Shown: piece after piece, positions 7,877 through 22,302 of the stretch
Numbering within the stretch: the stretch's first letter is position 1
Layout of the letters: each line of letters opens with the position of its first letter
DNA from: an uncultured Poribacteria bacterium
GTDB taxonomy: Bacteria; Poribacteria; WGA-4E; WGA-3G
Length of the DNA: 64,000 bases
Direction of reading: 5' to 3'
Assembly (NCBI GenBank): GCA_951813565.1
Contig: OX638351.1
Location: 256,001-320,000 of the forward strand
Program-made: the position numbers and the translations under genes
Notes under the pieces: generated by a model
What the model saw: the letters and a program-made list of their open reading frames with translations, nothing else
Told to the model about the DNA's origin: nothing
Database searches by the model: none

Positions 7877-10800
7877 ATGGAACGCTCAAAATTGTATTTC
7901 TTTTCACTCATTTTCATGTTAATCACAGCGGGTGCTTTGATGACAGGACCTGAGGCACAACAAACCGATGAGGCCACTGAACAAAAGCGCATGATGGCAC
8001 AAGAATTCGTAAAAAAGGCACAAGAATTCGTAAAACAAAACCGAATAGAGAAAGCAATAGAAATCTACGAAAGAATTGCCAAAGCGGTACCTGAAAATCT
8101 TGAATCACGCGCGGAACTTGCAAAACTCTATGCCCGCACAAATCAACACGATAAAGCTGCTCAAATCTGGAGCGAACTGCTTGACACTGCCCCAGAAAAC
8201 TTAGCGTATCAAGATGCGCTTTTTAATAGTCTACAAGCTGCTGGCAAACTGGACGAGGCAATTGAACTCGCGGAGGCATATATCCAAACGCAACCGGAGG
8301 TTGGTGTCCATTACGCACGGCTTGCCAAACTTTATGAAGACGAGGGAAACTTAGATGCAGCCATCACCAACTATGAAAAAGCGATTGAATTAGCATACGC
8401 TGATAAACAAACTTATGTCAAACTCGCAAGACTTAATTTTCTCAATGAGGACATAGACGCTGCCGAAATAGCGTTGAGGAATGCCATTCTATCTTCCACA
8501 TCAGTCCGAGAACAGAGAGATTTGGAACGACAATTGCTTAATCTCTATCGTTTTTATGGGAATTTAGAAGAGAAGCTACAAAAGGCTGAAAATGATGGAA
8601 CAACCACTTATGAGATGCAGAAAGTACGAGCAGAATACTTTTACAAAAATGACGAATTAGAAAAATCAGTAAATGCTTATAAGAAAGCATACAACATGAC
8701 AATCAGTTCCAATGAGAAAGAAAGAATATCTGCGGACTTACTCAAGGTATATGTACAACTCGGTGAAATGGACTCTGCAATAAAACCCTATGAAACAGAG
8801 GCGAATTCGAATACAAACAGCAATACACGATCCTTTACTTCGGCAAGAATTACAGTGACTTCGGCAAGAATTGCAGCGACATATAAATTGGAGACTGAAC
8901 GCGATTCATTGATTAGTGCTTTCAAGAACCAAGATAAACTTGAAATGTTAAAAACACATTATGAGGGTAAACTTGGAAAAAATAAAGATAATCCTGTGGC
9001 ACTCATAATATTGGCAAGAATATATTGGAATGAAAAGAATTATCAAAAATCTGCTGAAATGTATGAAGCACTTGGCAAAGCAGAATCAAACGATGTCCGT
9101 TATTTTTATTATGCTGCGGCTGCATTGAAAAAAAACAATCAGCCTGAATTAGCCAAAGAGATGCTCAATCAAGCTAAACAGGCACTTGCATCCTGCAGTG
9201 AAAAAGATGATGTGTATTTTCTTGGTGCGCTCGCAACAATTTGCAGTGAAAATAGGATGTTTGAACCGGCAATTGAACTGTCTAAATCCGCGATTGATAA
9301 GAGTAATAGCGATACAGATAGTAGGATTCAAGATACTTTGCGCAATATACTTGCAAAAAGTTACCGTGAAACAAAACGTTATATTGAAGCTGTTGATATG
9401 TATCAGGAAATTGCAAACAAATCCAGAAGTGCCAGCACACGAAATATAGCAAAAAGAGCGATCCGTGAAATCTCCGGAGAACGAAAACCCAATGAAAAAT
9501 TGATCCTGCAACAACTGAATGAGGTTGAAAAGAACCCTAACGATCCCAACCTCATCTTGGAACTTGCCAAAAGTTATGAAGCTACAGATAAAATTAAACA
9601 AGCAATTGAGCAGTATCAAAAACTTACTAAACTGCAACCTGAAAATGTCCGGTGGTACATAAAGTTGGGGGATATGTTTCAAAGAGTGGATCGTCCGATA
9701 GACAAAGTAATAGAAAGCAATGCACTTAGCTTAGATGGAAATGGGAGTTATGTCGAAATCGTGGACAGCGAGACCATTAACAATATTTCCGAGCAAGTTA
9801 CGATCTCTGCATGGATCAAACCCACAGATTTTCTAAACATCTATACGACTGTGTTATTCAAAGGAGACAGACGGATTCCGGACATTTCGCATCGTCAATT
9901 CACACTTTGGTTGTTTGATGAAGGCAAAATTCTCTTTAATGTATCACCGGACGGACATCCACAGAAATTTATCTGGTCTCCGCCAGATACGATTGAAAAA
10001 AATAAATGGTACCATGTTGCGGGAACAATTGATGCTAAAAATGACATCATGAAGTTATATCTCAACGGTGCTGAAGTTGGAAGAAATGACTTTAAACAGG
10101 CGTTACATTTACGTAAAACCACACTTCCATTCCGTATCGGTTGTTCTCATGAAGAAGAAAGGTGGGATCATGCTTCTTTTATCGGACAAATTGATGAGGT
10201 GCGTGTGTGGAACATTGCACGTACTGAAAATGAAATTCGTTCCGATATGAACAAGCAGTTGAAGGGAGATGAATCCGGTTTAGTCGGATATTGGAAATTT
10301 GACGCTGAAACGCAGGGACGCACTTCCGATAGTTCACCGAATAAAAATGATGGTAAACTTATCGGAAATGCTAAACTTGAACCTTACACCCGTCCAATTT
10401 TTGGAAATGTAAAGAATGAGGACTTGAGAAAAGCAGTAGTCTATTATGAAAAAGCGATAGAACTTAATCCAAAAATATACCAATCCCGCAATCTGTTAGC
10501 AAATTTATATATAAAACTGAACCAGATATCAGATGCTGAAGCGGTATATCTCCGAGCATTAGACGCACCTTTGACACAAGCGAGGCATGATTCCTTAATT
10601 CGCGCTATCTCCAAGCTTTACGTTGACGAAGGACAAGAGCACAAACTCGTTGCTATCCTTGAAGAAATAGAACCTAAAATGCAGGAGAGTGTAGTCTTGT
10701 ACGAACTTTTAGGAGACCTCTACAATAAAATAGGTGAATCCGATAAAGCTGAACTTGCCTACGTCGAGTGGTTGCAAATGAGAGAGAAGGAAGGAAATCT

Positions 10801-11161
10801 ACAGAGCGCAAAATATCAACGTTGGTTTGCTGAAGAACTTCTTGAAAAGGGAGTTCTTCCAGAAACAACACTAAAATATGCGAAACGTGCGTTACAAGAG
10901 GATACGGGGACGAGTTATTACTACCCCATGACACTTGGACATGCATGCATTGCGAATGATCTCTATGATGATGCGCTTCGATACTATAAATACGCTTTCA
11001 GTATGTTATCTGCCAATTCTTCATCGGACTATATCTGGAAACAGATCGCTGACGCAAGCAAGAATGCTAACGACAAAGAACGTTACATTCAAATGTTAAA
11101 TGCGTTGAAAAATTCCCTCCCACCGGAGTATTCAGGTTCTGTGTCAATGATTACTGATTAA
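7877..11161 (+). CDS. Secreted TPR-repeat protein with internal LamG/concanavalin-like domain
   Basis: N-terminal signal peptide; many TPR motifs (YEKAIEL); LamG motifs TISAWIKP, WYHVAGT, LYLNG, GQIDEVRVWNIART, GLVGYWKFD. Confidence 0.88.
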   Translation: MERSKLYFFSLIFMLITAGALMTGPEAQQTDEATEQKRMMAQEFVKKAQEFVKQNRIEKAIEIYERIAKAVPENLESRAELAKLYARTNQHDKAAQIWSELLDTAPENLAYQDALFNSLQAAGKLDEAIELAEAYIQTQPEVGVHYARLAKLYEDEGNLDAAITNYEKAIELAYADKQTYVKLARLNFLNEDIDAAEIALRNAILSSTSVREQRDLERQLLNLYRFYGNLEEKLQKAENDGTTTYEMQKVRAEYFYKNDELEKSVNAYKKAYNMTISSNEKERISADLLKVYVQLGEMDSAIKPYETEANSNTNSNTRSFTSARITVTSARIAATYKLETERDSLISAFKNQDKLEMLKTHYEGKLGKNKDNPVALIILARIYWNEKNYQKSAEMYEALGKAESNDVRYFYYAAAALKKNNQPELAKEMLNQAKQALASCSEKDDVYFLGALATICSENRMFEPAIELSKSAIDKSNSDTDSRIQDTLRNILAKSYRETKRYIEAVDMYQEIANKSRSASTRNIAKRAIREISGERKPNEKLILQQLNEVEKNPNDPNLILELAKSYEATDKIKQAIEQYQKLTKLQPENVRWYIKLGDMFQRVDRPIDKVIESNALSLDGNGSYVEIVDSETINNISEQVTISAWIKPTDFLNIYTTVLFKGDRRIPDISHRQFTLWLFDEGKILFNVSPDGHPQKFIWSPPDTIEKNKWYHVAGTIDAKNDIMKLYLNGAEVGRNDFKQALHLRKTTLPFRIGCSHEEERWDHASFIGQIDEVRVWNIARTENEIRSDMNKQLKGDESGLVGYWKFDAETQGRTSDSSPNKNDGKLIGNAKLEPYTRPIFGNVKNEDLRKAVVYYEKAIELNPKIYQSRNLLANLYIKLNQISDAEAVYLRALDAPLTQARHDSLIRAISKLYVDEGQEHKLVAILEEIEPKMQESVVLYELLGDLYNKIGESDKAELAYVEWLQMREKEGNLQSAKYQRWFAEELLEKGVLPETTLKYAKRALQEDTGTSYYYPMTLGHACIANDLYDDALRYYKYAFSMLSANSSSDYIWKQIADASKNANDKERYIQMLNALKNSLPPEYSGSVSMITD

Positions 11162-11597: not shown

Positions 11598-13141
11598 CAT
11601 AGGTGTCAACTTAAGGATTTTCAGCATTCTTTAGTTGCCTGTAATACCAAATTACCCTAAATCGTAGGGGCGGGTCTCTGTGCCCGCCCTTACCATCGGC
11701 AATGAAAACAATGCAATTCTCGTTAATTTGGTATAAGTTGTCCGCTTTCCTGCTCTATGTTTTCCATAGTCGCTGTATCGTCCACCCTGTTTTATGTATC
11801 TAAGTGTTCTATAAAAAGCTGTTTTAGATTTGTGAAAACTCATTGTGAGTGTGCGTGCGTGCCTCCCAATAAGTTTTGCTGTTTTGATGAGATCGTGTCG
11901 CATACATTTCCATCCAGTTGCTAACATAATCCAGTGTCTTATAAGTTGTGCGATGAGTTTGGCGGACACCTCACATAAGGGACGCTCAGGTTTGGTGCTG
12001 CGGGATGTATTCACCTTACCAACGCTTTTGAAGGATTTAAACTCAACTCAACTTGCCATCGTATCCGGGCGATAGTGGCAACCTGTTCGGCGGTAAGTCG
12101 TGTCGTCCCAATATTTGTAATGTAGATGTCCCAACCGGCAAGTTGTAAGCTTGTTTTGAGGGTGTTGTCCATCTCCGTTTAGCATCGCGTCTGATGTTTC
12201 GGCGACGCTTGTTTGCTTCTGGTTCGGAACATCGCAGCGCAACAAGCCGTGCTGACAGACGCTTCTTTGCGCCAACGAAGCAGTTCTGGTCTATAGTGTC
12301 TAAGTTTGTTGCTTTGAGGTGCTTATACAAGCAGAAAGGTTCTCCTTGTTCATCAAAGAGTTTACAGTTTACTTTCAATCTTGTGATCCAAAAGGCACCT
12401 GTTTGTGTCAGTTTTCCAAACGCGTCAAGTGAGAAATAGCTGAGGTCTGCTAAACGTAAACTTCCAGCGGAGAGCGGTTCAAACTCCTTTTCTGCTGTGC
12501 TATCGGCAATGATACCATCAGTGAGTTGGAAGTGTACAAAAGCACCCGTGAGCACATCAAAACGGAGGTGAAGTTTTATGGGAGCTTTTTTATGTTCGGT
12601 TCTACAACCGGTTTCCTTCCAAACGGATCGGAGTTCATCGGGGAGCGCAATCCAAGTGCTGTCCTGCAAATAGACACCTGTGAACTGTTTTAGCAAAGGG
12701 AGTGTCTGCGGTTGTGCCGAAATAACTTGTGTTGCGGCTACTTCAAGCGTTGATTTTAGGGTTTGTGCAGCCTCATAAGTCATCCGTTTTTCAATCGCTT
12801 GACGGGTGACATGCACATCTAAGCGCGTGCTGTTTGTGCCAAATCTGTATAACTTGCATCGGGAGTTTCAAGCCACCCGAATACGAGCATCTGGACGAAA
12901 GCACTTCCGGAAAGTTTGCGTATTCTTTGGACGAACCCGCAACTCAAAGCTGATGCGTTAGCGGTGGTTTGTAGTATCTCTTGCATTTTATCGGAAACCT
13001 ATGTTAGAATAGACATCGGAACACCTCTTTTGTAGGAATAAGTAGAAGTTATTTTCTCCATTATGCAAGAGGTGTCTCCATTTTGCAACGCTTTTCTAAT
13101 ACCTAAAAAGACACATATCTGTTCTTAAGTTGACACCTATG
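11598..13141 (-). mobile_element. IS4-family (IS231-like ends) insertion sequence, defective
   Basis: Perfect 18-bp TIR cataggtgtcaacttaag / cttaagttgacacctatg. Confidence 0.88.
11652..13016 (-). pseudogene. IS4-family transposase pseudogene
   Basis: Start MSILT* at 13016 with early stop; frameshifts near 12825 and 12150; motifs LQDST, LADLSYF; fragments 12043-12816 and 11652-12014. Confidence 0.85.
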
Positions 13142-13321: not shown

Positions 13322-13663
13322 TTGAAAATGCGTCCTTTTTTTGTATCGTTATCAATCTTAACAAGTATTATAGGTCTCATCTTTATCATGCGTGGTTGTG
13401 TACATCCTGCAAAATATCAGAAGGAGTTATCTAAGGAAACACCAACTGCAGTTAGAGTAACCCAAATTTACACTGAGGCCACTCATCTTGTTGTAGTCGG
13501 TATCGGGGTTGTTAGTTTAGGGATACTGATAGTTTTTATCGGGACACTTACCCGCATTGATGAATGGAAAAATCTGTATTCACGCTTAATAGGTAAAACT
13601 ACGAAGAATTCAATAGTTGCGGATGAACCTGAAACTTCACAGCGTGAGGAGAACGAAAATTGA
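13322..13663 (+). CDS. Hypothetical membrane protein (two hydrophobic segments)
   Basis: Two TM-like stretches; stop overlaps the yggS start. Confidence 0.7.
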   Translation: MKMRPFFVSLSILTSIIGLIFIMRGCVHPAKYQKELSKETPTAVRVTQIYTEATHLVVVGIGVVSLGILIVFIGTLTRIDEWKNLYSRLIGKTTKNSIVADEPETSQREENEN

Positions 13664-14376
13664 ATCGGATTGTTGAAAACCTTGCGAATGTCAAGGAACG
13701 TATGGCGGCATCTGCAGAACGAAGTGGTCGCGCACCGGATTCAATTAAGCTTGTTACGGTTACAAAAGGACGTTCAATAACAAATATTCAAACAGTCCTT
13801 GCTGCTGGGGCGACAGATATTGGTGAAAACCGTGTGCAGGAAGCACAGCAAAAATTCGACCTAATTCAATCGTTTTGTGAAACAGTACCAAACATTCAAG
13901 CATGTGAATGGCACCTTGTAGGACACCTTCAAAGAAATAAAGTTAAGTCTGCCTTAGATATGTTTACGCTAATCCACTCAGTGGATAGTTTGAGACTTTT
14001 AGCAGAGATAGCACGGCGGGCAGAAGCACGTAAGCAACAAACAGAAATACTAATTCAAATAAATACAACTGGCGAAGCAAGCAAGTTTGGTATAGATTCG
14101 GAGGATGTGCGGGATTTTATAGAAAAGTCGCTTACCTATTCAGGCGCACGTATTGTTGGGTTAATGACAATGGGAGTATTAAGTTCTTCCCCAGAAATAA
14201 ATCGCCCAGCTTTTGCTCTGCTGAGAACACTTTCGGAAAAGGTAAAGGCTGAGAAGTTTCCCGGAATAACAATGGAGTACCTCTCCATGGGGATGACAAA
14301 CGATTTTGAGGTAGCAATCGAAGAAGGAGCGAACCTTGTTAGGATAGGTAGGGCAATTTTCGGAAACGCAGGTTAA
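13660..14376 (+). CDS. yggS: YggS/PLPBP pyridoxal-phosphate homeostasis protein
   Basis: VTVTK, GENRVQE, WHLVGHLQRNK, LSMGMTNDFEVAIEEGANLVRIGRAIFG. Confidence 0.96.
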   Translation: MNRIVENLANVKERMAASAERSGRAPDSIKLVTVTKGRSITNIQTVLAAGATDIGENRVQEAQQKFDLIQSFCETVPNIQACEWHLVGHLQRNKVKSALDMFTLIHSVDSLRLLAEIARRAEARKQQTEILIQINTTGEASKFGIDSEDVRDFIEKSLTYSGARIVGLMTMGVLSSSPEINRPAFALLRTLSEKVKAEKFPGITMEYLSMGMTNDFEVAIEEGANLVRIGRAIFGNAG

Positions 14377-14514
14377 TAGAATAGTACTTACGCACTTTGC
14401 TTATTTTCGGTTTTATTTATCGTGAGATCCAATTTATTGCGTGATTACTGATGAAGTTAAAACAATTGATATAAATCTGTTCTCATTAACGCTGTGGATA
14501 TTGTGAGGAGTAAA

Positions 14515-15333
14515 ATGGTGGTAGACAACCTAAAATTGGGTGTGATTGGTGTCGGAAAGATGGGCGGTATACTCGTAAGGAGTATCGTTGGACGCTTGTT
14601 TCCAGCGCAACAAATTTGGATTACCGATCTGGACAAAAATCTGGTTAACCAACTCTGTGATGAAAAAGGTGTGAACGCTACGTCAAACATTGAGGAACTT
14701 ATCAAAAAGACAGATATTATCCTCTGTGCCGTTCCACCCGTGGCGGTACCGCACATTCTACCACAGGTATCACACAGTCTCTCATCACCACAATGGATTA
14801 TAAGCATCGCAGCTGGCGTCGCGACTGAAACGCTCGAATCATATTTTAAAACCCCGCCTCCAATTGTTCGCGTGATGCCAAATATAGCAGCTTCGGTTGA
14901 AGCGGCAATCTCTGTGTTGACAGCAGGCAGTGCTGCTGATGAGCAACATCTCGCCATAGCGCAAAAGGTATTCAACACTTGCGGAACTACATTAATATTG
15001 GAGGAACGACACCTAAATGCGGTTACAGGAGTCAGCGGCAGTGGTCCTGCTTATGTTGCGCTTTTTATAGAAGCATTAGCAGATGCCGGTGTCCATGTCG
15101 GTTTGCCACGGCAAGACGCGCAAACTTTGGCGATACACACAGTTTTGGGTGCAGCTTCAATGTTAGCACAATCCCAAGAACATCCTGCTGTCCTGAAAAA
15201 CCGAGTCACAACACCGGGCGGGACAACAGCTGCAGGACTCCACGCACTTGAACGAGGTGGTTTGCGCGCAACACTTGCCGAGGCAATACTTGCTGCAACG
15301 GAACGTGCCAAACAACTTGACACGGTAAAATAG
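14515..15333 (+). CDS. proC: Pyrroline-5-carboxylate reductase
   Basis: IGVGKMG, ISIAAGV, VRVMPN, SGSGPAY, VTTPGGTT; ATG 14515 follows GAGGAG. Confidence 0.96.
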   Translation: MVVDNLKLGVIGVGKMGGILVRSIVGRLFPAQQIWITDLDKNLVNQLCDEKGVNATSNIEELIKKTDIILCAVPPVAVPHILPQVSHSLSSPQWIISIAAGVATETLESYFKTPPPIVRVMPNIAASVEAAISVLTAGSAADEQHLAIAQKVFNTCGTTLILEERHLNAVTGVSGSGPAYVALFIEALADAGVHVGLPRQDAQTLAIHTVLGAASMLAQSQEHPAVLKNRVTTPGGTTAAGLHALERGGLRATLAEAILAATERAKQLDTVK

Positions 15334-15349
15334 GAAGGGAATAACCGTA

Positions 15350-15619
15350 ATGCCTATTCTTGCCAAATTGCTCAGTCACCTTCTTGATATTTACATGGTA
15401 ATTGTTATCGCTAACGTGTTACTTTCATGGATAGTGTTCGGAACGCAAAATTTAGTCGTTCGTCGAATCTATGTGGCCACAGGTCAATTGGTCGATCCGG
15501 TATTACAACCTATTCGAAACCTAATTTATCCGATGACTCGCAATATCGGTATTGACTTTTCGCCAATAGTGTTAATTGTTCTCTTACAAATTCTCAGTTC
15601 ATGGTTGCGTCCTTCGTAA
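15350..15619 (+). CDS. yggT: YggT family membrane protein
   Basis: LLSW, DPVLQPIR, GIDFSPIV; synteny with yggS-proC. Confidence 0.93.
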   Translation: MPILAKLLSHLLDIYMVIVIANVLLSWIVFGTQNLVVRRIYVATGQLVDPVLQPIRNLIYPMTRNIGIDFSPIVLIVLLQILSSWLRPS

Positions 15620-15679: not shown

Positions 15680-18283
15680 ATGACCACTTGCTTTATGAAA
15701 AAGGCAAATTCTTCCCCAAAGGACACTACAGTTAAACGTTCCAGTACTAAATCTAAGAAAAAGAAGTTAAACTCAGTTCAGACTGAGGACGTTTTACATA
15801 GTTCCCACGAAGCAGAAATTCTTAAATTGTGGACAACTCAAAATGTCTACAAGGTTGAAGAAAAAAATGCCGTGTCGCCAACCTATGTGATCAGAGAAAT
15901 GCCAACGCCTGTGGATGCACTAAGCCTTGACACACTTCGAAGAAAAATTTATCAAGATATTTTCCTCAAATGTGAAATGCTCCGGGGACGTAGTGTTGTA
16001 TATTCGCCGTTTTGGGAAACCTTTCCCTTTAGCGTTGAAGCGACCGTAATAAAAGAAAAAATGGCTACAGTTTCAGGAAATATCATCAATTTTCGAAAGC
16101 AGTGTAGACAACTTTACAGTGAACAATTAAAAACGCAAGAACAGAAATTACAGAAACTCGGTATTTTTGCAGATTGGACTTCCGCTGAAAAAACATTGGA
16201 GGCACGTCATGAGACTAAACTCTTTAGCTACTTTGATAGATTACGAGACACTAAATTCTTACGTGATGAATTGAAACTCAGCCATTGGTGTCCAAAATGT
16301 GCTTCACCGTTGGAAACAGGAAAAACAGTTACACCGGTTTCCAATAGCGTTTTAGATACCTATGTAAAGTTTCCACTCAACAGCGGTTTTGAAGAATTTG
16401 GAAAAGATGTCTTTTTCGTTGCGCGTTTTCCACTGTCTCAATTGTGGCGGATTGCAGGAATGATCGCAATGGGAATTTTTGAAAATGCCACCTTTTTACT
16501 CACCGAATTTGAAAACCAATATCTAATTTTTTCTGAACAGCAATTGAAAAAATTTGTTGATCCAAACACTAAACGTAAGAAATATCCTGTACCTATTGGG
16601 AAATTAAAAGCAACACAGTTTAACAATTGTACTGTCTCACACCCGCTATTCTCACTAACTGATCTACCTTTTTATTCATTACCAGAAAAAATAGTTGGAA
16701 CCATTTCTGATTCATCACAAAAAAAGGAATTGATGGAGGGCATCATACCTCTAAACCCTGCACATCATTTGCTTAGTTATAGTATTTCCAATGTGTTAGC
16801 AAGCATTGATAACTCTGCCAAAGCAAAATTTATATCATCTACTCCAACAACACCCATTTTTGATGAAACTGGCAGGTTTACAGAAGATGCGGATGCCTTA
16901 TGCGGATTAAAATTGTCTAACGCGATTCAACTTATTACTGATGAATTAGAGAATCGTGGGGGCTTAATTAAAGGAAGAAAACATAAAATAAAACAACTTG
17001 AATGTCAACACTGTAATGGTTTGTCAGTTTCGCGTCCTTACAGGCACTGGGTATTTTCCATTACCTCCAGCAATATTCAAGAAGATGTCTCAAATTTACC
17101 AGAATATTGGGCGCATTACGACGACGAAATACGGGGGGACATTCAAAGTGAAATGATGAATGCCTCCGATATGCCAATTTCTTCGCAACGCCAATGGGGA
17201 ATACCGCTCCCAATTCTGATGTGTGATAGTTGCAACAATATTATTACAGATAAAAAAACGCTTCGGGCAGTTCGTAGTTCTATCCGACGCGGTTCGGAAC
17301 ACTGGTTCCGTCTGAGCGTAGAAGAACTATTACCCGCAGATACGGTCTGCATACATTGCCATTCAAAGGACTTCCGAAAAGAGGCTACTTACATTGAAAG
17401 TCATTTTGCTAACCTACTTCAGGCACTTGATACATCAGATTTCAAAAAACCAATTATTGGGTCTTGCACGAATGTTACTTTTGCACCCCGTGCCGCTTTC
17501 TTAAAATGGTTAAGAGAGTTGAGTGTGCTTTCAGCATCACTTCAACTGAGTCGACCTACTAAAGAGAGCCAACCCTTTAAATTCTTAAAACTAAACAGTA
17601 TTGCTGAAGAAGTTTGGGACACCGTGATAGAAGAAAATTTGTATAAAAAATATCCTGCGGATGTTCTACGCCTAATCTCAATAGTGCCAGACTTACATCA
17701 AGTTCAACTTAAAGAAGATGACACTAAACAACTTGAAGAGTTGATAGAGGTGTACAATCAAAAATACGGACAACTTAAAGAGGTATTAAATCAGGCAGTC
17801 CAATTGCTATCTGATCTGCAGAATAGGACTAATTCTAATAAACGTATGACCACCTCTAATAAACCTGACGCGAATGTTTGTGAAATATTATTGAAACATG
17901 ACGCACTTGCCATTTCTTTGACTAATCAACTTCTCAGCAGTGTTGAGGCAGCTTACACAGAAAGAGATTTTTATGGTATGTGGCAATTATTATTAGATTT
18001 CTGTCGTACAGATCTTCAATTTTATATCGAATTTTGTGCTGCGAAAAAAGTAGCTAAAGGGGTAGTCTCTGCACAACTTGCTTTTTCATCAATATTCACA
18101 GCCATTTTACAATATCTTGCTCCGATTACTCCTTTCTTAGCTGAAGAAATTTTTGTTCAGACAAATTCCGCTTTCACCAGCATATTTCAAAGTAAGAGGA
18201 GTCAATTACCAAAAATCTCTCAGCAATTTGATACAAAGGTTGAATGGGAGTCGTTAAAGAATAGCTATCAACCAAAAACCTAA
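15680..18283 (+). CDS. Degenerate isoleucyl-tRNA synthetase homologue (predicted catalytically dead)
   Basis: IleRS-like segments LGIFADW, HWCPKC, YVKFPL, DETGRFTE, ISSQRQWGIPLP, KYPADVLRL, LAPITPFLAEEI; position between yggT and lspA; HIGH and KMSKS absent. Confidence 0.85.
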   Translation: MTTCFMKKANSSPKDTTVKRSSTKSKKKKLNSVQTEDVLHSSHEAEILKLWTTQNVYKVEEKNAVSPTYVIREMPTPVDALSLDTLRRKIYQDIFLKCEMLRGRSVVYSPFWETFPFSVEATVIKEKMATVSGNIINFRKQCRQLYSEQLKTQEQKLQKLGIFADWTSAEKTLEARHETKLFSYFDRLRDTKFLRDELKLSHWCPKCASPLETGKTVTPVSNSVLDTYVKFPLNSGFEEFGKDVFFVARFPLSQLWRIAGMIAMGIFENATFLLTEFENQYLIFSEQQLKKFVDPNTKRKKYPVPIGKLKATQFNNCTVSHPLFSLTDLPFYSLPEKIVGTISDSSQKKELMEGIIPLNPAHHLLSYSISNVLASIDNSAKAKFISSTPTTPIFDETGRFTEDADALCGLKLSNAIQLITDELENRGGLIKGRKHKIKQLECQHCNGLSVSRPYRHWVFSITSSNIQEDVSNLPEYWAHYDDEIRGDIQSEMMNASDMPISSQRQWGIPLPILMCDSCNNIITDKKTLRAVRSSIRRGSEHWFRLSVEELLPADTVCIHCHSKDFRKEATYIESHFANLLQALDTSDFKKPIIGSCTNVTFAPRAAFLKWLRELSVLSASLQLSRPTKESQPFKFLKLNSIAEEVWDTVIEENLYKKYPADVLRLISIVPDLHQVQLKEDDTKQLEELIEVYNQKYGQLKEVLNQAVQLLSDLQNRTNSNKRMTTSNKPDANVCEILLKHDALAISLTNQLLSSVEAAYTERDFYGMWQLLLDFCRTDLQFYIEFCAAKKVAKGVVSAQLAFSSIFTAILQYLAPITPFLAEEIFVQTNSAFTSIFQSKRSQLPKISQQFDTKVEWESLKNSYQPKT

Positions 18284-18305: not shown

Positions 18306-18800
18306 GTGATTTCTCCGTTTCAATATTTTAAAAATGTTCTGCCATTAATAGTGGTAGCAATTCCATCATTGTTACTTGATATCGTTACCAAATGGCTGGT
18401 ACGTATGCATATCCCTAAAGGGAGAGGCTATTCAATTATTCAAGGCTTTTTTAATTTAAGGCATGATAGAAACTCTGGTGCTGCTTTCGGAATTTTATCA
18501 GATCAGCGGACGTTGTTAGTTATAATAACGATCGCTGCATTGATCTTTATTTTCGTCTATTCTTTCAGATTCAGACAGAGTCGATGGATGCAAACCGCGT
18601 TAGGTTTTCTCCTTGGTGGAGCAGTAGGAAACTTTATTGACCGTCTTTTTTTAGGTGAAGTTGTCGACTTTCTGCAGTTTGGTATAGAAAGCAAAAATTT
18701 GTATTGGCCCACTTTTAACGTCGCTGATGTGTCTGTATGTATAGGCGCGGGGATGCTCATCGTTTATCTGTTTCGTATTCAGAATCGGAGCACTAATTGA
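18306..18800 (+). CDS. lspA: Lipoprotein signal peptidase II
   Basis: DIVTK, NSGAAFG, GGAVGNFIDR, VVDFL, WPTFNVAD. Confidence 0.96.
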   Translation: MISPFQYFKNVLPLIVVAIPSLLLDIVTKWLVRMHIPKGRGYSIIQGFFNLRHDRNSGAAFGILSDQRTLLVIITIAALIFIFVYSFRFRQSRWMQTALGFLLGGAVGNFIDRLFLGEVVDFLQFGIESKNLYWPTFNVADVSVCIGAGMLIVYLFRIQNRSTN

Positions 18801-18810
18801 GGTAGTAGAT

Positions 18811-18840
18811 GTAGGTTGGGTAGAGCGTAGCGAAACCCAT
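18811..18840 (+). repeat. GTAG-type REP hairpin
   Basis: gtaggttgggtagagcgtagcgaaaccca; related copies at 11314, 13141, 29503, ~30015, ~51123 (reverse). Confidence 0.8.
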
Positions 18841-18889: not shown

Positions 18890-19474
18890 ATGTTTAAATT
18901 TAGAATTCGTATATATGTGGTCGCGTTAGCAGTAATTTTCGCATTAGTACCGCAATCAGAAGCGCAAAATCGAAGTGTTCCCCCTACAGAGCAAACTCAA
19001 GGAACACAACAAGAGGAATATAGCGAAAGTGCTTTACGTCGATTTGAGATTGTTACGTTAAGCGCACTCCCCTTCACCGCAGTCCATAGTTATTTGGGGG
19101 TTCGCGGTATAAAAATGGCACAAACAAATAAAATAGCACCAGAGTTAACACCACAGAATTACCGTGTAATGGGGATCACTGCTGTTTCGTTATCACTATT
19201 TATCGGTTTTTGGGACTGGCTACATACCCGTAATGTAGACAGGTCAGCTCCGAGTGTGCCAGAACGCAAGCCACCATCATCTCCTACTGAAGAAGGGATT
19301 CCTCCAGATGGGAGTATTGCTCGTATTCCTATTTTCGGTCCACATGCAAACATATACGGTATCTCAACATATTTTCCGCAACAACAACTATACTCAGTAA
19401 ATAACCAGTTGAATATGTGGTCAGCTGAACCATCTGTCGGCTTTGTTATTCCACTCCTTGAAATACGATTCTAA
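18890..19474 (+). CDS. Hypothetical exported/membrane protein
   Basis: Signal peptide (SEA|Q), two further hydrophobic segments, terminal Phe. Confidence 0.7.
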   Translation: MFKFRIRIYVVALAVIFALVPQSEAQNRSVPPTEQTQGTQQEEYSESALRRFEIVTLSALPFTAVHSYLGVRGIKMAQTNKIAPELTPQNYRVMGITAVSLSLFIGFWDWLHTRNVDRSAPSVPERKPPSSPTEEGIPPDGSIARIPIFGPHANIYGISTYFPQQQLYSVNNQLNMWSAEPSVGFVIPLLEIRF

Positions 19475-21493: not shown

Positions 21494-21642
21494 TCTTGCA
21501 AAGAACGTCCGTAATTGAAATTTCGGTAGACACTCCACTAGAAATCTGCTGAAATTACCACTGTTTTAGTTATAATTATTTAATAAATGCTGCAAATTAT
21601 GTAGGTCCTAACTGTTCTATTGAAAATTGGAGGATATGTCAA

Positions 21643-22302
21643 ATTTTAAAACCCCCTAAAATCGCGCCGTCACTTTTAGCAGCAGACTTCAGTCGTTTCG
21701 GTGAGGAAGTCGAACGAGTTGTTGAGTCTGGTGCTGACTTACTCCATTTTGATGTAATGGATGGTGAATTTGTACCAAACTTTGGTATAAGTCCTCTATT
21801 AATTGCTGCAGTTCGTGAAAAAACGGATGTGCTTTTTGATGTCCATATTATGGTGAGACACCCACTCCGATATATTGATGCGTTAGTTGATGCCGGGTCC
21901 GATATGATTACCTTCCATATTGAGAGTGATGATGAACCCAATGCAGTGATTTCCACAATTAAAGACCACAACATAAAAGTCGGATTAGCGTTTTCACCAA
22001 ATATAGAAAATGAGAAAGTTATACCATATCTGTCGGATATTGACCTTGTGTTACCGATGAGCGTTGAGCCAGGATTCGGGGGACAAGCATTTATTCCGAC
22101 TACTTTACAGAAAATTGCGAAATTACATCAAAAGATACAAGAAATTGATAATTCACCCGAAATTTCTGTTGATGGCGGTGTAACAGTAGATATAGGTCCA
22201 GACGCTGTTCGTGAAGGTGCAACAATTCTTGTCGCAGGCACAGCAATTTTTAAGAGCCAACACCCGAAAGCAGTTATAGAAAAATTACGGACTGTAGAAT
22301 AA
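21643..22302 (+). CDS. rpe: Ribulose-phosphate 3-epimerase (start codon anomalous)
   Basis: KIAPSLLAADF and LHFDVMDG lie in frame upstream of/at the listed 21757 start; DVHIM, ITFHIE, MSVEPGFGGQ, VDGG, VAGTAIF. Confidence 0.93.
   Translation: MLKPPKIAPSLLAADFSRFGEEVERVVESGADLLHFDVMDGEFVPNFGISPLLIAAVREKTDVLFDVHIMVRHPLRYIDALVDAGSDMITFHIESDDEPNAVISTIKDHNIKVGLAFSPNIENEKVIPYLSDIDLVLPMSVEPGFGGQAFIPTTLQKIAKLHQKIQEIDNSPEISVDGGVTVDIGPDAVREGATILVAGTAIFKSQHPKAVIEKLRTVE

Follow-up and report, generated by a model that had tools for sequence, protein, structure and literature searches.

The open reading frame at positions 15680-18283 of the window, by which we mean the whole 64,000-nucleotide stretch of Poribacteria DNA analyzed here, is the ancestral ileS1 gene of this phylum, which has lost the residues for charging, proofreading and tRNA reading and is kept by selection. 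The original prediction had proposed a gutted isoleucyl-tRNA synthetase (IleRS) with a new non-catalytic role, and its outline is supported by fold, selection, synteny and the presence of a second IleRS, which together suggest such a role for the protein, here termed pseudo-IleRS1.

The frame comprises 867 codons and is located between yggT (PF02325) and lspA (PF01252). Because most orthologues begin with MKK at position 15695, the ATG at this position is probably the true start, giving a protein of 862 amino acids. The gene and its neighbors are arranged as follows:

13660..14376, + strand: PLP-binding protein, presumably yggS/PipY-like, conserved upstream neighbor
14494..15333, + strand: pyrroline-5-carboxylate reductase, which we take to be proC-like from its sequence family, conserved upstream neighbor
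15350..15619, + strand: yggT, conserved upstream neighbor
15680..18283, + strand: pseudo-IleRS1 frame, 867 codons from 15680 (probable start 15695, 862 amino acids)
18306..18800, + strand: lspA (signal peptidase II), conserved downstream neighbor
18890..19474, + strand: hydrophobic protein of 194 amino acids without Pfam match, conserved after lspA

The frame showed no indels and no stop codons in four of four DNA runs from two studies (one of the runs may be the source of the assembly), and it is therefore not an assembly artefact. Across these runs, we found three SNPs in the gene (one missense, two silent). Among eight runs listed, none was an RNA run containing the gene, which weighs neither for nor against expression. 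A search for Rfam RNAs, including T-boxes, near pseudo-IleRS1 or IleRS2 gave no matches in four loci.

The assignment to IleRS at the ileS locus held: the protein is a full-fold type-1 IleRS with an intact frame. It matches PF00133 and PF08264, and scores 164.8 bits against the ileS equivalog TIGR00392, below the cut-off of 621.4. Its best sequence matches are IleRS1 proteins, and a FastTree phylogeny places the pseudo-IleRS1 clade outside IleRS2 and ValRS, on long branches; these results support descent from the IleRS1 side of the family, as does the position before lspA. The AlphaFold2 model is confident (mean pLDDT 84.2, pTM 0.84) and its best Foldseek matches are 8c9f and 8c9e, IleRS1 of P. 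megaterium (E ∼1e-34, TM 0.55). As predicted by this model, the IleRS1 fold is kept, that is, a class Ia fold with CP1, CP2 and a helical anticodon bundle. An ESM Atlas search returned generic Ile/Val synthetase clusters only.

Relative to bacterial IleRS1 (P. megaterium 8C9E/8C9F, S. aureus 1QU2/1QU3), which provide the best sequence and fold matches and share domain order and the place before lspA, pseudo-IleRS1 is only ∼18-21% identical. It has neither HIGH nor KMSKS, its isoleucine pocket is lost, the Thr motif and the Asp of the editing site are gone, and it has also lost the anticodon-region residues together with the C-terminal zinc finger. All motif substitutions listed in the original prediction are present and align as it described to P. 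megaterium IleRS1 and 30 intact IleRS1 proteins. The positions concerned are:

15893..15946, + strand: PPYANG-HxGH motif position, degenerate (residues 72-89)
16007..16039, + strand: GWDxHGxPxE isoleucine-pocket motif position, degenerate (residues 110-120; P, W and E kept)
16424..16450, + strand: editing WTTTPWT motif position, threonines lost, only W256 kept
16733..16780, + strand: editing GTG..H.APGHG.DD motif position, catalytic Asp lost in this gene (S366)
17585..17629, + strand: KMSKS loop position, shortened, motif absent
17720..18280, + strand: helical anticodon-binding bundle, fold kept, anticodon-region residues lost, without C-terminal zinc finger

Using reference residues that we chose from known functional sites and from invariance in the alignment, this gene keeps 0 of 22 in the synthetic site, 3 of 15 in the editing site and 1 of 11 in the anticodon region, compared with means of 21.8, 14.6 and 10.6 in the 30 intact IleRS1 proteins. 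(Averages of residue retention over 64 copies leave out L266, L088 and L263.) The KMSKS loop is ∼9 residues shorter here. The same pattern extends to the family, for which we counted 63 full-length copies, leaving out two contig-edge partials (L266, L088) and two possible duplicates (L039, L040): HIGH and KMSKS are both missing from all 63, with neither the first His and Gly of HxGH nor the KMSKS signature in any copy. The editing Asp persists in 19 of 63 and the anticodon-region Arg in 9 of 63, while the C-terminal zinc finger, whose loss from this gene had been noted correctly, is confined to the deepest class. Judged from these motifs, pseudo-IleRS1 has presumably lost catalysis. The anticodon bundle had also been described as kept, which applies to its fold but not to its anticodon-region residues.

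The separate functional IleRS postulated elsewhere in the genome was found: the host encodes an intact IleRS2 with all motifs, including GVHH and KMSKS (G000:C1:1669137-1672280), so that pseudo-IleRS1 is not its only IleRS. Among 43 genomes tested, 40 gave an IleRS2 match. Pairing of pseudo-IleRS1 with one IleRS2 type was rejected, as a longer IleRS2 clade occurs both in genomes that lost pseudo-IleRS1 (10/10 of genus g5, 4/4 of genus g3) and in genomes that keep it (7/8 of the other family f3 genomes tested, and G057); G025 lost the gene and carries the standard IleRS2 type. Pseudo-IleRS1 has also persisted where the host IleRS2 was exchanged for one from a clade with only ∼44% identity, which argues against specific pairing with IleRS2.

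We detected orthologues across most of the phylum, in 158 of 176 genomes (156 plus two contig-edge fragments). The family is monophyletic and its tree follows host taxonomy. Among the phylum-wide matches listed, which leave out 59 rows, orthologue frames are open and synteny is conserved, without the frequent disruption expected of a decaying gene. In one analysis of 19 loci, three for which a wrong frame had been picked were dropped. Pseudo-IleRS1 stands before lspA in the loci read, and lspA follows in all 64 loci holding both genes. The gene is absent from 11/11 genomes of family f2 and 4/4 of genus g3; in the five genomes read, a clean deletion leaves yggT beside lspA, and tblastn with six queries detected no remnants in these five loci. 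Since two lineages deleted the gene cleanly, its role is accessory, and we infer a regulator, adaptor or chaperone. Gutted IleRS1 genes distinct from this family were also found in Armatimonadota, a deltaproteobacterium and Wallbacteria, and such genes recur before lspA in unrelated lineages. One origin with these was unsupported by FastTree, in a tree made weak by long branches. DivIVA as an obligatory partner was rejected: tblastn with two DivIVA queries found none in G000.

Pseudo-IleRS1 is under purifying selection on the protein. Its dN/dS is 0.218 (95% interval 0.20-0.23; 10 disjoint pairs), about threefold that of IleRS2 (0.07) and not near 1, the value by which functional decay was to be recognized; the two closest pairs gave 0.54 and 0.36. 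In a simulation of neutral change, 5% change would leave ∼6 stop codons, and none of 300 simulations was without a stop. GC3 is 0.31, compared with 0.47 for IleRS2. Constraint has shifted, the slowest regions of pseudo-IleRS1 now being the CP2 zinc knuckle, with a dN/dS of 0.09 (0.076 for CP2/Zn in IleRS2), and the entry strand of CP1 (0.12). In IleRS2, both catalytic halves rank with the slowest parts (0.033 and 0.026), whereas they reach 0.19 and 0.18 in pseudo-IleRS1. The anticodon bundle is loose (0.29).

The features kept or newly conserved in the family are:

15695..15799, + strand: Lys/Ser-rich N-terminal tail, predicted to be disordered (pLDDT <50), host's family only
16205..16207, + strand: R176, family-specific conserved Arg (60/63 copies; 2% of intact IleRS1 representatives)
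16289..16300, + strand: CxxC pair 1 (C204, C207)
16373..16402, + strand: new invariant motif P232-xxx-G236-x-E238-xx-G241 at the CP1 domain entry (63/63)
17003..17014, + strand: CxxC pair 2 (C442, C445), presumably sharing one zinc with pair 1, by analogy with IleRS structures
17168..17395, + strand: CP2 / second zinc knuckle (C515, C518, C557, C560) with family-specific R532 and R537, most constrained

All four CxxC pairs seen initially (C204/207, C442/445, C515/518, C557/560) were confirmed, and each of the eight Cys is found in 60-63 of 63 copies versus 18-29 of 48 intact IleRS1 representatives. G236 and E238 occur in none of these 48. The Lys-rich tail is indeed present, although it is restricted to the host's family and is the fastest-evolving part of the protein (dN/dS 0.44). 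Conserved residues are mostly Trp, Gly, Pro and Cys and may only keep the fold. Net charge ranges from +8 to −47 across the family, and general nucleic-acid binding is therefore not favored. A self-association test of residues 192-575 scored 0.00, which carries no weight for or against self-association.

Based on these observations, we lean, with modest confidence, towards a non-catalytic, zinc-stabilized scaffold that binds RNA or protein through its CP1/CP2 surface. The phylum ancestor would have gained IleRS2, to which charging of tRNA-Ile passed; in IleRS1, the sites for ATP and isoleucine would have disappeared first, followed separately in individual lineages by the editing site, anticodon reading and the zinc finger, while the protein would have been retained in a folded, non-catalytic form. 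Two zinc sites may hold the CP region rigid, and this region together with G236, E238, G241, R176 and R532 could form the binding surface for one macromolecular partner, with the new invariant residues probably on one surface. Given such a scaffold, RNA is the marginally favored partner, either a tRNA backbone or another structured RNA, with the Ile anticodon unread; a protein is nearly as probable. Specific binding of tRNA-Ile through the anticodon bundle, one form of the tRNA binding first suggested, is disfavored: this bundle is weakly constrained and has lost its anticodon-region residues, the zinc finger is missing, and selection acts on the CP2 knuckle and CP1 entry.

Several other explanations were weighed against such a scaffold. 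The gene could have no function of its own, its frame staying open only because disruption would have polar effects on lspA and downstream genes and its sequence being held only against misfolding. The invariable presence of lspA behind it, selection weaker than on working synthetases, the structural nature of many invariant residues and the recurrence of gutted IleRS1 before lspA in unrelated lineages all fit this idea. We nevertheless regard it as unlikely: clean deletion is feasible, so a useless 2.6-kb gene would hardly last phylum-wide; 9 of 64 loci have a gap of 90-546 nt before lspA, showing that close coupling is not a conserved feature; and neither the new invariant residues nor a CP2 constraint near that of the working enzyme would be expected. 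A still working IleRS with relocated catalytic residues is extremely improbable. In 10/13 other f1 copies and 4/6 f4 copies, a Lys lines up with the second Lys of KMSKS, but it is absent from this gene, from 24/24 copies of its genus and from 9/9 f3 copies. AxHH-like strings are present in 6 of 63 copies but are located several residues ahead of the motif position, and the HIGH loop of the family contains neither a conserved Lys nor a conserved Arg. One study describes non-canonical signature motifs in IleRS2, while reporting that IleRS1 is intolerant even of a GxHH swap (10.1101/2023.01.31.526100).

The remaining alternatives assign the protein a different activity. It could act as a trans-editing factor that assists IleRS2, its CP1 still clearing mischarged tRNA-Ile of Val or norvaline; in favor of this, WIGTPWT, GTG and the zinc finger are still present in the deepest class. 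Outside this class, however, the Thr-rich motif is gone; the Asp is missing from this gene and from all 37 copies of its family, the anticodon-region Arg is rare, and the host IleRS2 has its own intact editing site, which makes trans-editing rather improbable. A zinc buffer or thiol/metal sensor, with the eight cysteines as the function, would agree with their retention in this family, although they are optional in intact IleRS1, and with the CP2 zinc knuckle as the slowest region. We consider it improbable, since an 860-amino-acid protein is costly for holding two ions, the sites may simply be inherited from the ancestral enzyme, and the invariant non-Cys motif at the CP1 entry would stay unexplained. 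A new enzyme could also have arisen from the synthetase fold, for example a transferase that depends on aminoacyl-tRNA, as do SbzA and the cyclodipeptide synthases; in the latter, aminoacyl transfer needs no ATP site, which counts for this idea. We judge it very improbable: the former active-site motifs hold no new invariant polar residue, the isoleucine-pocket residues are lost, and the neighborhood consists of housekeeping rather than biosynthetic genes. SbzA is a full-length IleRS homologue with a non-canonical job that transfers Ile from Ile-tRNA, but it keeps HIGH and KMSKS with slight changes, retains residual charging and belongs to a biosynthetic cluster (PMC6331615). Pseudo-IleRS1 has neither near-intact HIGH/KMSKS motifs nor such a cluster; what we did find are two hallmarks of a pseudoenzyme, coexistence with an intact enzyme of the same specificity and purifying selection on the protein.

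Most known synthetase descendants that no longer charge tRNA are single domains, class II proteins or copies with part of their chemistry left, and a scaffold of this kind would differ from them. LeuRS-I of Sulfolobaceae and LeuRS2 of Halobacteria are likewise full-length second class Ia synthetases with lost or very low charging that are kept in their lineage; both are archaeal, LeuRS-I still makes leucyl-adenylate and binds tRNA-Leu, and LeuRS2 keeps tRNA affinity (PMC9437257). In contrast, pseudo-IleRS1 has lost ATP, amino-acid, editing and anticodon sites and represents the original copy, still at its ancestral locus. SLIMP, an insect mitochondrial SerRS paralogue, and HisZ are also non-charging descendants with scaffold or regulatory roles, but they belong to class II, and SLIMP pairs with SerRS. 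Bacilli similarly carry both IleRS types in one genome, type 2 being of the mupirocin-resistant kind; both are active there, whereas type 1 is dead by sequence in Poribacteria. We found no description of this dead family in the literature, supplementary alignments of IleRS phylogeny papers being outside the scope of the search. A full-length class Ia enzyme lacking all three working sites, kept since the origin of the phylum, points to a new job for the fold. The family also forms a natural separation-of-function series, running from the deepest class, where the zinc finger and part of the editing site are still present, to the host's family, which has neither, and it offers a short list of residues to mutate.

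More speculatively, and we hold this doubtful, IleRS1 may generally have a second, non-charging function on the CP1-entry/CP2-zinc surface that IleRS2 cannot supply, so that the gene before lspA tends to lose catalysis yet stay whole. Poribacteria would then be the oldest and most complete case, and Armatimonadota, the deltaproteobacterium and Wallbacteria independent younger repeats. If true, the dead copies would isolate a moonlighting role of a core translation enzyme.

Pseudo-IleRS1 genes are currently annotated as 'isoleucyl-tRNA synthetase', 'class I tRNA ligase family protein' or 'hypothetical protein', and under such names they can mislead annotation and marker-gene trees. As for the frameshifted dead genes reported nearby, the claim was borne out in part: a DDE transposase is split at 11652-12816, and the start of rpe carries an apparent frameshift.

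pseudo-IleRS1 descends from IleRS1, is folded and kept under selection, and lacks the residues needed for charging. Its gene was located as follows:

window 15680-18283, pseudo-IleRS1 ORF, 867 codons, flanked by yggT and lspA

The start is probably at 15695, because the majority of orthologues start at that site. The protein matches PF00133 and PF08264 and reaches 165 bits with TIGR00392, where 621 are required. The closest solved structures are the type-1 IleRS of P. megaterium and S. aureus, which were again the top Foldseek matches of the AlphaFold2 model (mean pLDDT 84.2, 70-sequence alignment as input). The frame had been described as intact and free of stops, and it is indeed open, without indels or stops, in contigs from four DNA runs of two studies, one run possibly being the source of the assembly.

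We scored pseudo-IleRS1 against 30 intact IleRS1 at positions picked by structural knowledge and alignment invariance. It keeps 0/22 synthetic-site residues (mean of the intact proteins, 21.8), three of 15 editing-site residues (14.6) and a single one of 11 anticodon-region residues (10.6). The noted absence of HIGH and KMSKS extends to the family: of the 63 full-length Poribacteria copies (a single copy from each genome), none keeps KMSK and none keeps the first His or the Gly of HxGH (0/63 each), and the HIGH loop of these orthologues contains no conserved Lys or Arg as a relocated catalytic residue. At the KMSKS column, Lys is present in 10/13 other copies of the host's family and 4/6 of family f4, and absent from pseudo-IleRS1, its genus (0/24) and family f3 (0/9). 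AxHH-like strings occur in six of the 63 copies, all preceding the HIGH motif position. A GxHH swap alone is reported to abolish IleRS1 activity (10.1101/2023.01.31.526100).

The original prediction had also postulated a separate functional IleRS. Judging from its motifs, this is an intact IleRS2 of 1047 aa in the host genome (C1:1669137-1672280) with GVHH, WTTTPWT and KMSKS; the genome also carries separate ValRS and LeuRS genes, each with its own signature motifs. GVHH is described as a signature tied to mupirocin hyper-resistance (10.1101/2023.01.31.526100). IleRS2 was matched in 40/43 Poribacteria genomes tested, and a TIGR00392 search of 20 Poribacteria genomes identified every gene above the cut-off as IleRS2, with no intact IleRS1 seen. 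In the deepest class, IleRS2 (loci L080, L081 and L083 of genomes G043, G041 and G042) reads TIAH where HIGH would be expected, which fits neither HxGH nor GxHH, and has an intact KMSKS. A longer IleRS2 clade (~1120-1190 codons, ~44% identical to the host's) in family f3, genus g5 and genome G057 (L103, L104, L084) suggests replacement by gene transfer inside the phylum.

Overall, pseudo-IleRS1 is a real phylum-wide pseudo-synthetase, with a putative non-catalytic function. It was matched in 156 of 176 Poribacteria genomes, including 111/111 others of the host's family, and when the 20 misses were searched with a profile, along with three controls, contig-edge fragments turned up in two more (158/176 in total). 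Neither the protein match nor the profile search found it in 11/11 genomes of family f2, 4/4 of genus g3 and three single genomes (completeness 91%, 73% and 61%). In all five f2/g3 genomes read, yggT adjoins lspA with at most one short unrelated ORF and no pseudo-IleRS1 remnant in between. Among the matches listed, single stops within some orthologue matches accompany full-length open frames of 804-891 codons and therefore sit at the alignment edge. The recurrent order in the phylum is yggS-proC-yggT-(divIVA)-pseudo-IleRS1-lspA-194 aa protein-(def)-fmt (41 wide loci). The 194-aa hydrophobic protein (window 18890-19474) has no Pfam match and is kept after lspA phylum-wide, even where pseudo-IleRS1 is deleted; in L265 it forms a fusion with a longer N-terminal domain.

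In FastTree trees, a branch with support 99 and 100 sets the Poribacteria copies apart from the other sequences; among these copies, branching tracks class, order and family. The deepest-class version (931 aa) lacks HIGH and KMSKS and keeps the zinc finger, WIGTPWT and GTG. The conserved editing Asp named in PMC4861432 is present in 9/9 f3 copies versus 0/37 in the host's family. In the simplest history, its order inferred, the phylum ancestor would have lost the synthetic site first, and the other sites would have gone stepwise later.

A profile search yielded 146 new representatives, of which 123 spanned both scored regions. Among these 123, 15 without the Poribacteria motif keep at most 14 of the 22 synthetic-site residues; the named ones belong to Bacillota, Armatimonadota, Myxococcales/Deltaproteobacteria and Wallbacteria. 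An Armatimonadota genome has the gutted IleRS1 upstream of lspA and an intact GVHH IleRS2 elsewhere; among 16 readable loci of its relatives, KMSKS is lost in five and 11 are seemingly intact. Deltaproteobacterium NP119 (L281, 5001-11400) carries a gutted IleRS1 before lspA and two lgt-like genes, and an intact IleRS1 on another contig. Most of the non-Poribacteria copies retain the Ile pocket, the anticodon-region Arg and the zinc-finger Cys, and none groups with the Poribacteria clade in FastTree, where long branches weaken the tree. They look like younger, independent repeats. In P0175 (Ca. Wallbacteria) and P0214, an IleRS1 that is wholly or partly gutted is joined to a Glu/Leu/Phe/Val dehydrogenase-like domain, possibly as a fusion that senses amino acids; P0141 is similar in length.

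Selection was assessed by Nei-Gojobori dN/dS. Within the host's genus (30 non-independent pairs with dS <1), the median is 0.19 for pseudo-IleRS1 versus 0.054 for IleRS2, 0.078 for ValRS and 0.10 for lspA. Pooled over 10 disjoint pairs, dN/dS across relatives is 0.218 (bootstrap 0.20-0.23), and hence not near 1, as predicted for a retained gene. Eight pairs used for both genes give 0.216 for pseudo-IleRS1 versus 0.072 for IleRS2; the two closest pseudo-IleRS1 pairs show higher values (0.54 and 0.36). Under neutrality, ~6 stops would be gained in the gene after 5% change.

Constraint inside pseudo-IleRS1 has shifted relative to IleRS2. In IleRS2, dN/dS is 0.033 and 0.026 in the catalytic halves and 0.076 in CP2/Zn, the region of the second zinc knuckle. 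The pseudo-IleRS1 values are 0.19 and 0.18 for the catalytic halves, 0.29 (0.25-0.33) for the helical bundle, 0.12 (0.07-0.19) for the CP1 entry and 0.09 (0.07-0.12) for CP2/Zn. Identity among 12 Poribacteria representatives versus 10 intact IleRS1 is 39% versus 42% in CP2/Zn, and 19% versus 47% in the first part of the bundle. Eight Cys are each kept in 60-63 of 63 pseudo-IleRS1 copies versus 18-29 of 48 intact IleRS1 representatives. The CP1-entry residues P232, G236, E238 and G241 are each present in 63/63 copies, R532 in 62 and R176 in 60; in intact IleRS1 representatives, G236, E238 and R532 occur in 0% and R176 in 2%.

We propose that pseudo-IleRS1 acts as a non-catalytic scaffold. Its working surface would consist of the CP2 knuckle, held by zinc, together with the CP1 entry next to it; the conserved residues may cluster on this surface, which would bind one partner. 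The new conserved Arg slightly favor RNA as putative partner. Anticodon reading is ascribed to the helical bundle and C-terminal domain (10.64898/2026.02.03.703510); reading of tRNA-Ile by pseudo-IleRS1 is disfavored, since the anticodon-region residues are lost and net charge varies from +8 to -47 across the family. In deeper Poribacteria, divIVA sits directly before pseudo-IleRS1, unlike in the host, and DivIVA is an unlikely partner, as tblastn found no match in the whole host genome. IleRS2 is also unlikely: pseudo-IleRS1 outlasted its swap to the ~44%-identical clade, and the swap is unlinked to loss. The gap to lspA measures 90-546 nt in 9/64 loci, and tight coupling to lspA is therefore not conserved.

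The accessible part of review PMC9437257 has only IleRS2 and SbzA as IleRS entries and counts LeuRS-I, LeuRS2, SLIMP and HisZ among the relatives that charge weakly or not at all. SbzA is reported to retain HIGH and KMSKS (PMC6331615), whereas the pseudo-IleRS1 family has neither. Such an IleRS paralogue is not mentioned in the accessible part of PMC11580382. We found no published description of Poribacteria pseudo-IleRS1 in a search that left subscription papers largely outside; large IleRS alignments in such papers and their supplements could contain copies of it.

A 31-base element after lspA (window 18810-18840), with 14 genome copies at ≤2 mismatches and 62 at ≤4, looks like a REP-type repeat. 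Two further features were recorded:

window 7877-11161, TPR protein of 1094 aa, secreted-looking, into which a Laminin G-like domain is inserted
window 11652-12816, minus strand, DDE (PF01609) transposase broken into two ORFs, seemingly an insertion element that is dead

The gene rpe (window 21629-22302; 223 aa in relatives) has a GGAGG site, and its ATG at 21636 does not share the reading frame of the conserved part. The frame breaks at A and C homopolymers, by either a true frameshift or an assembly error.
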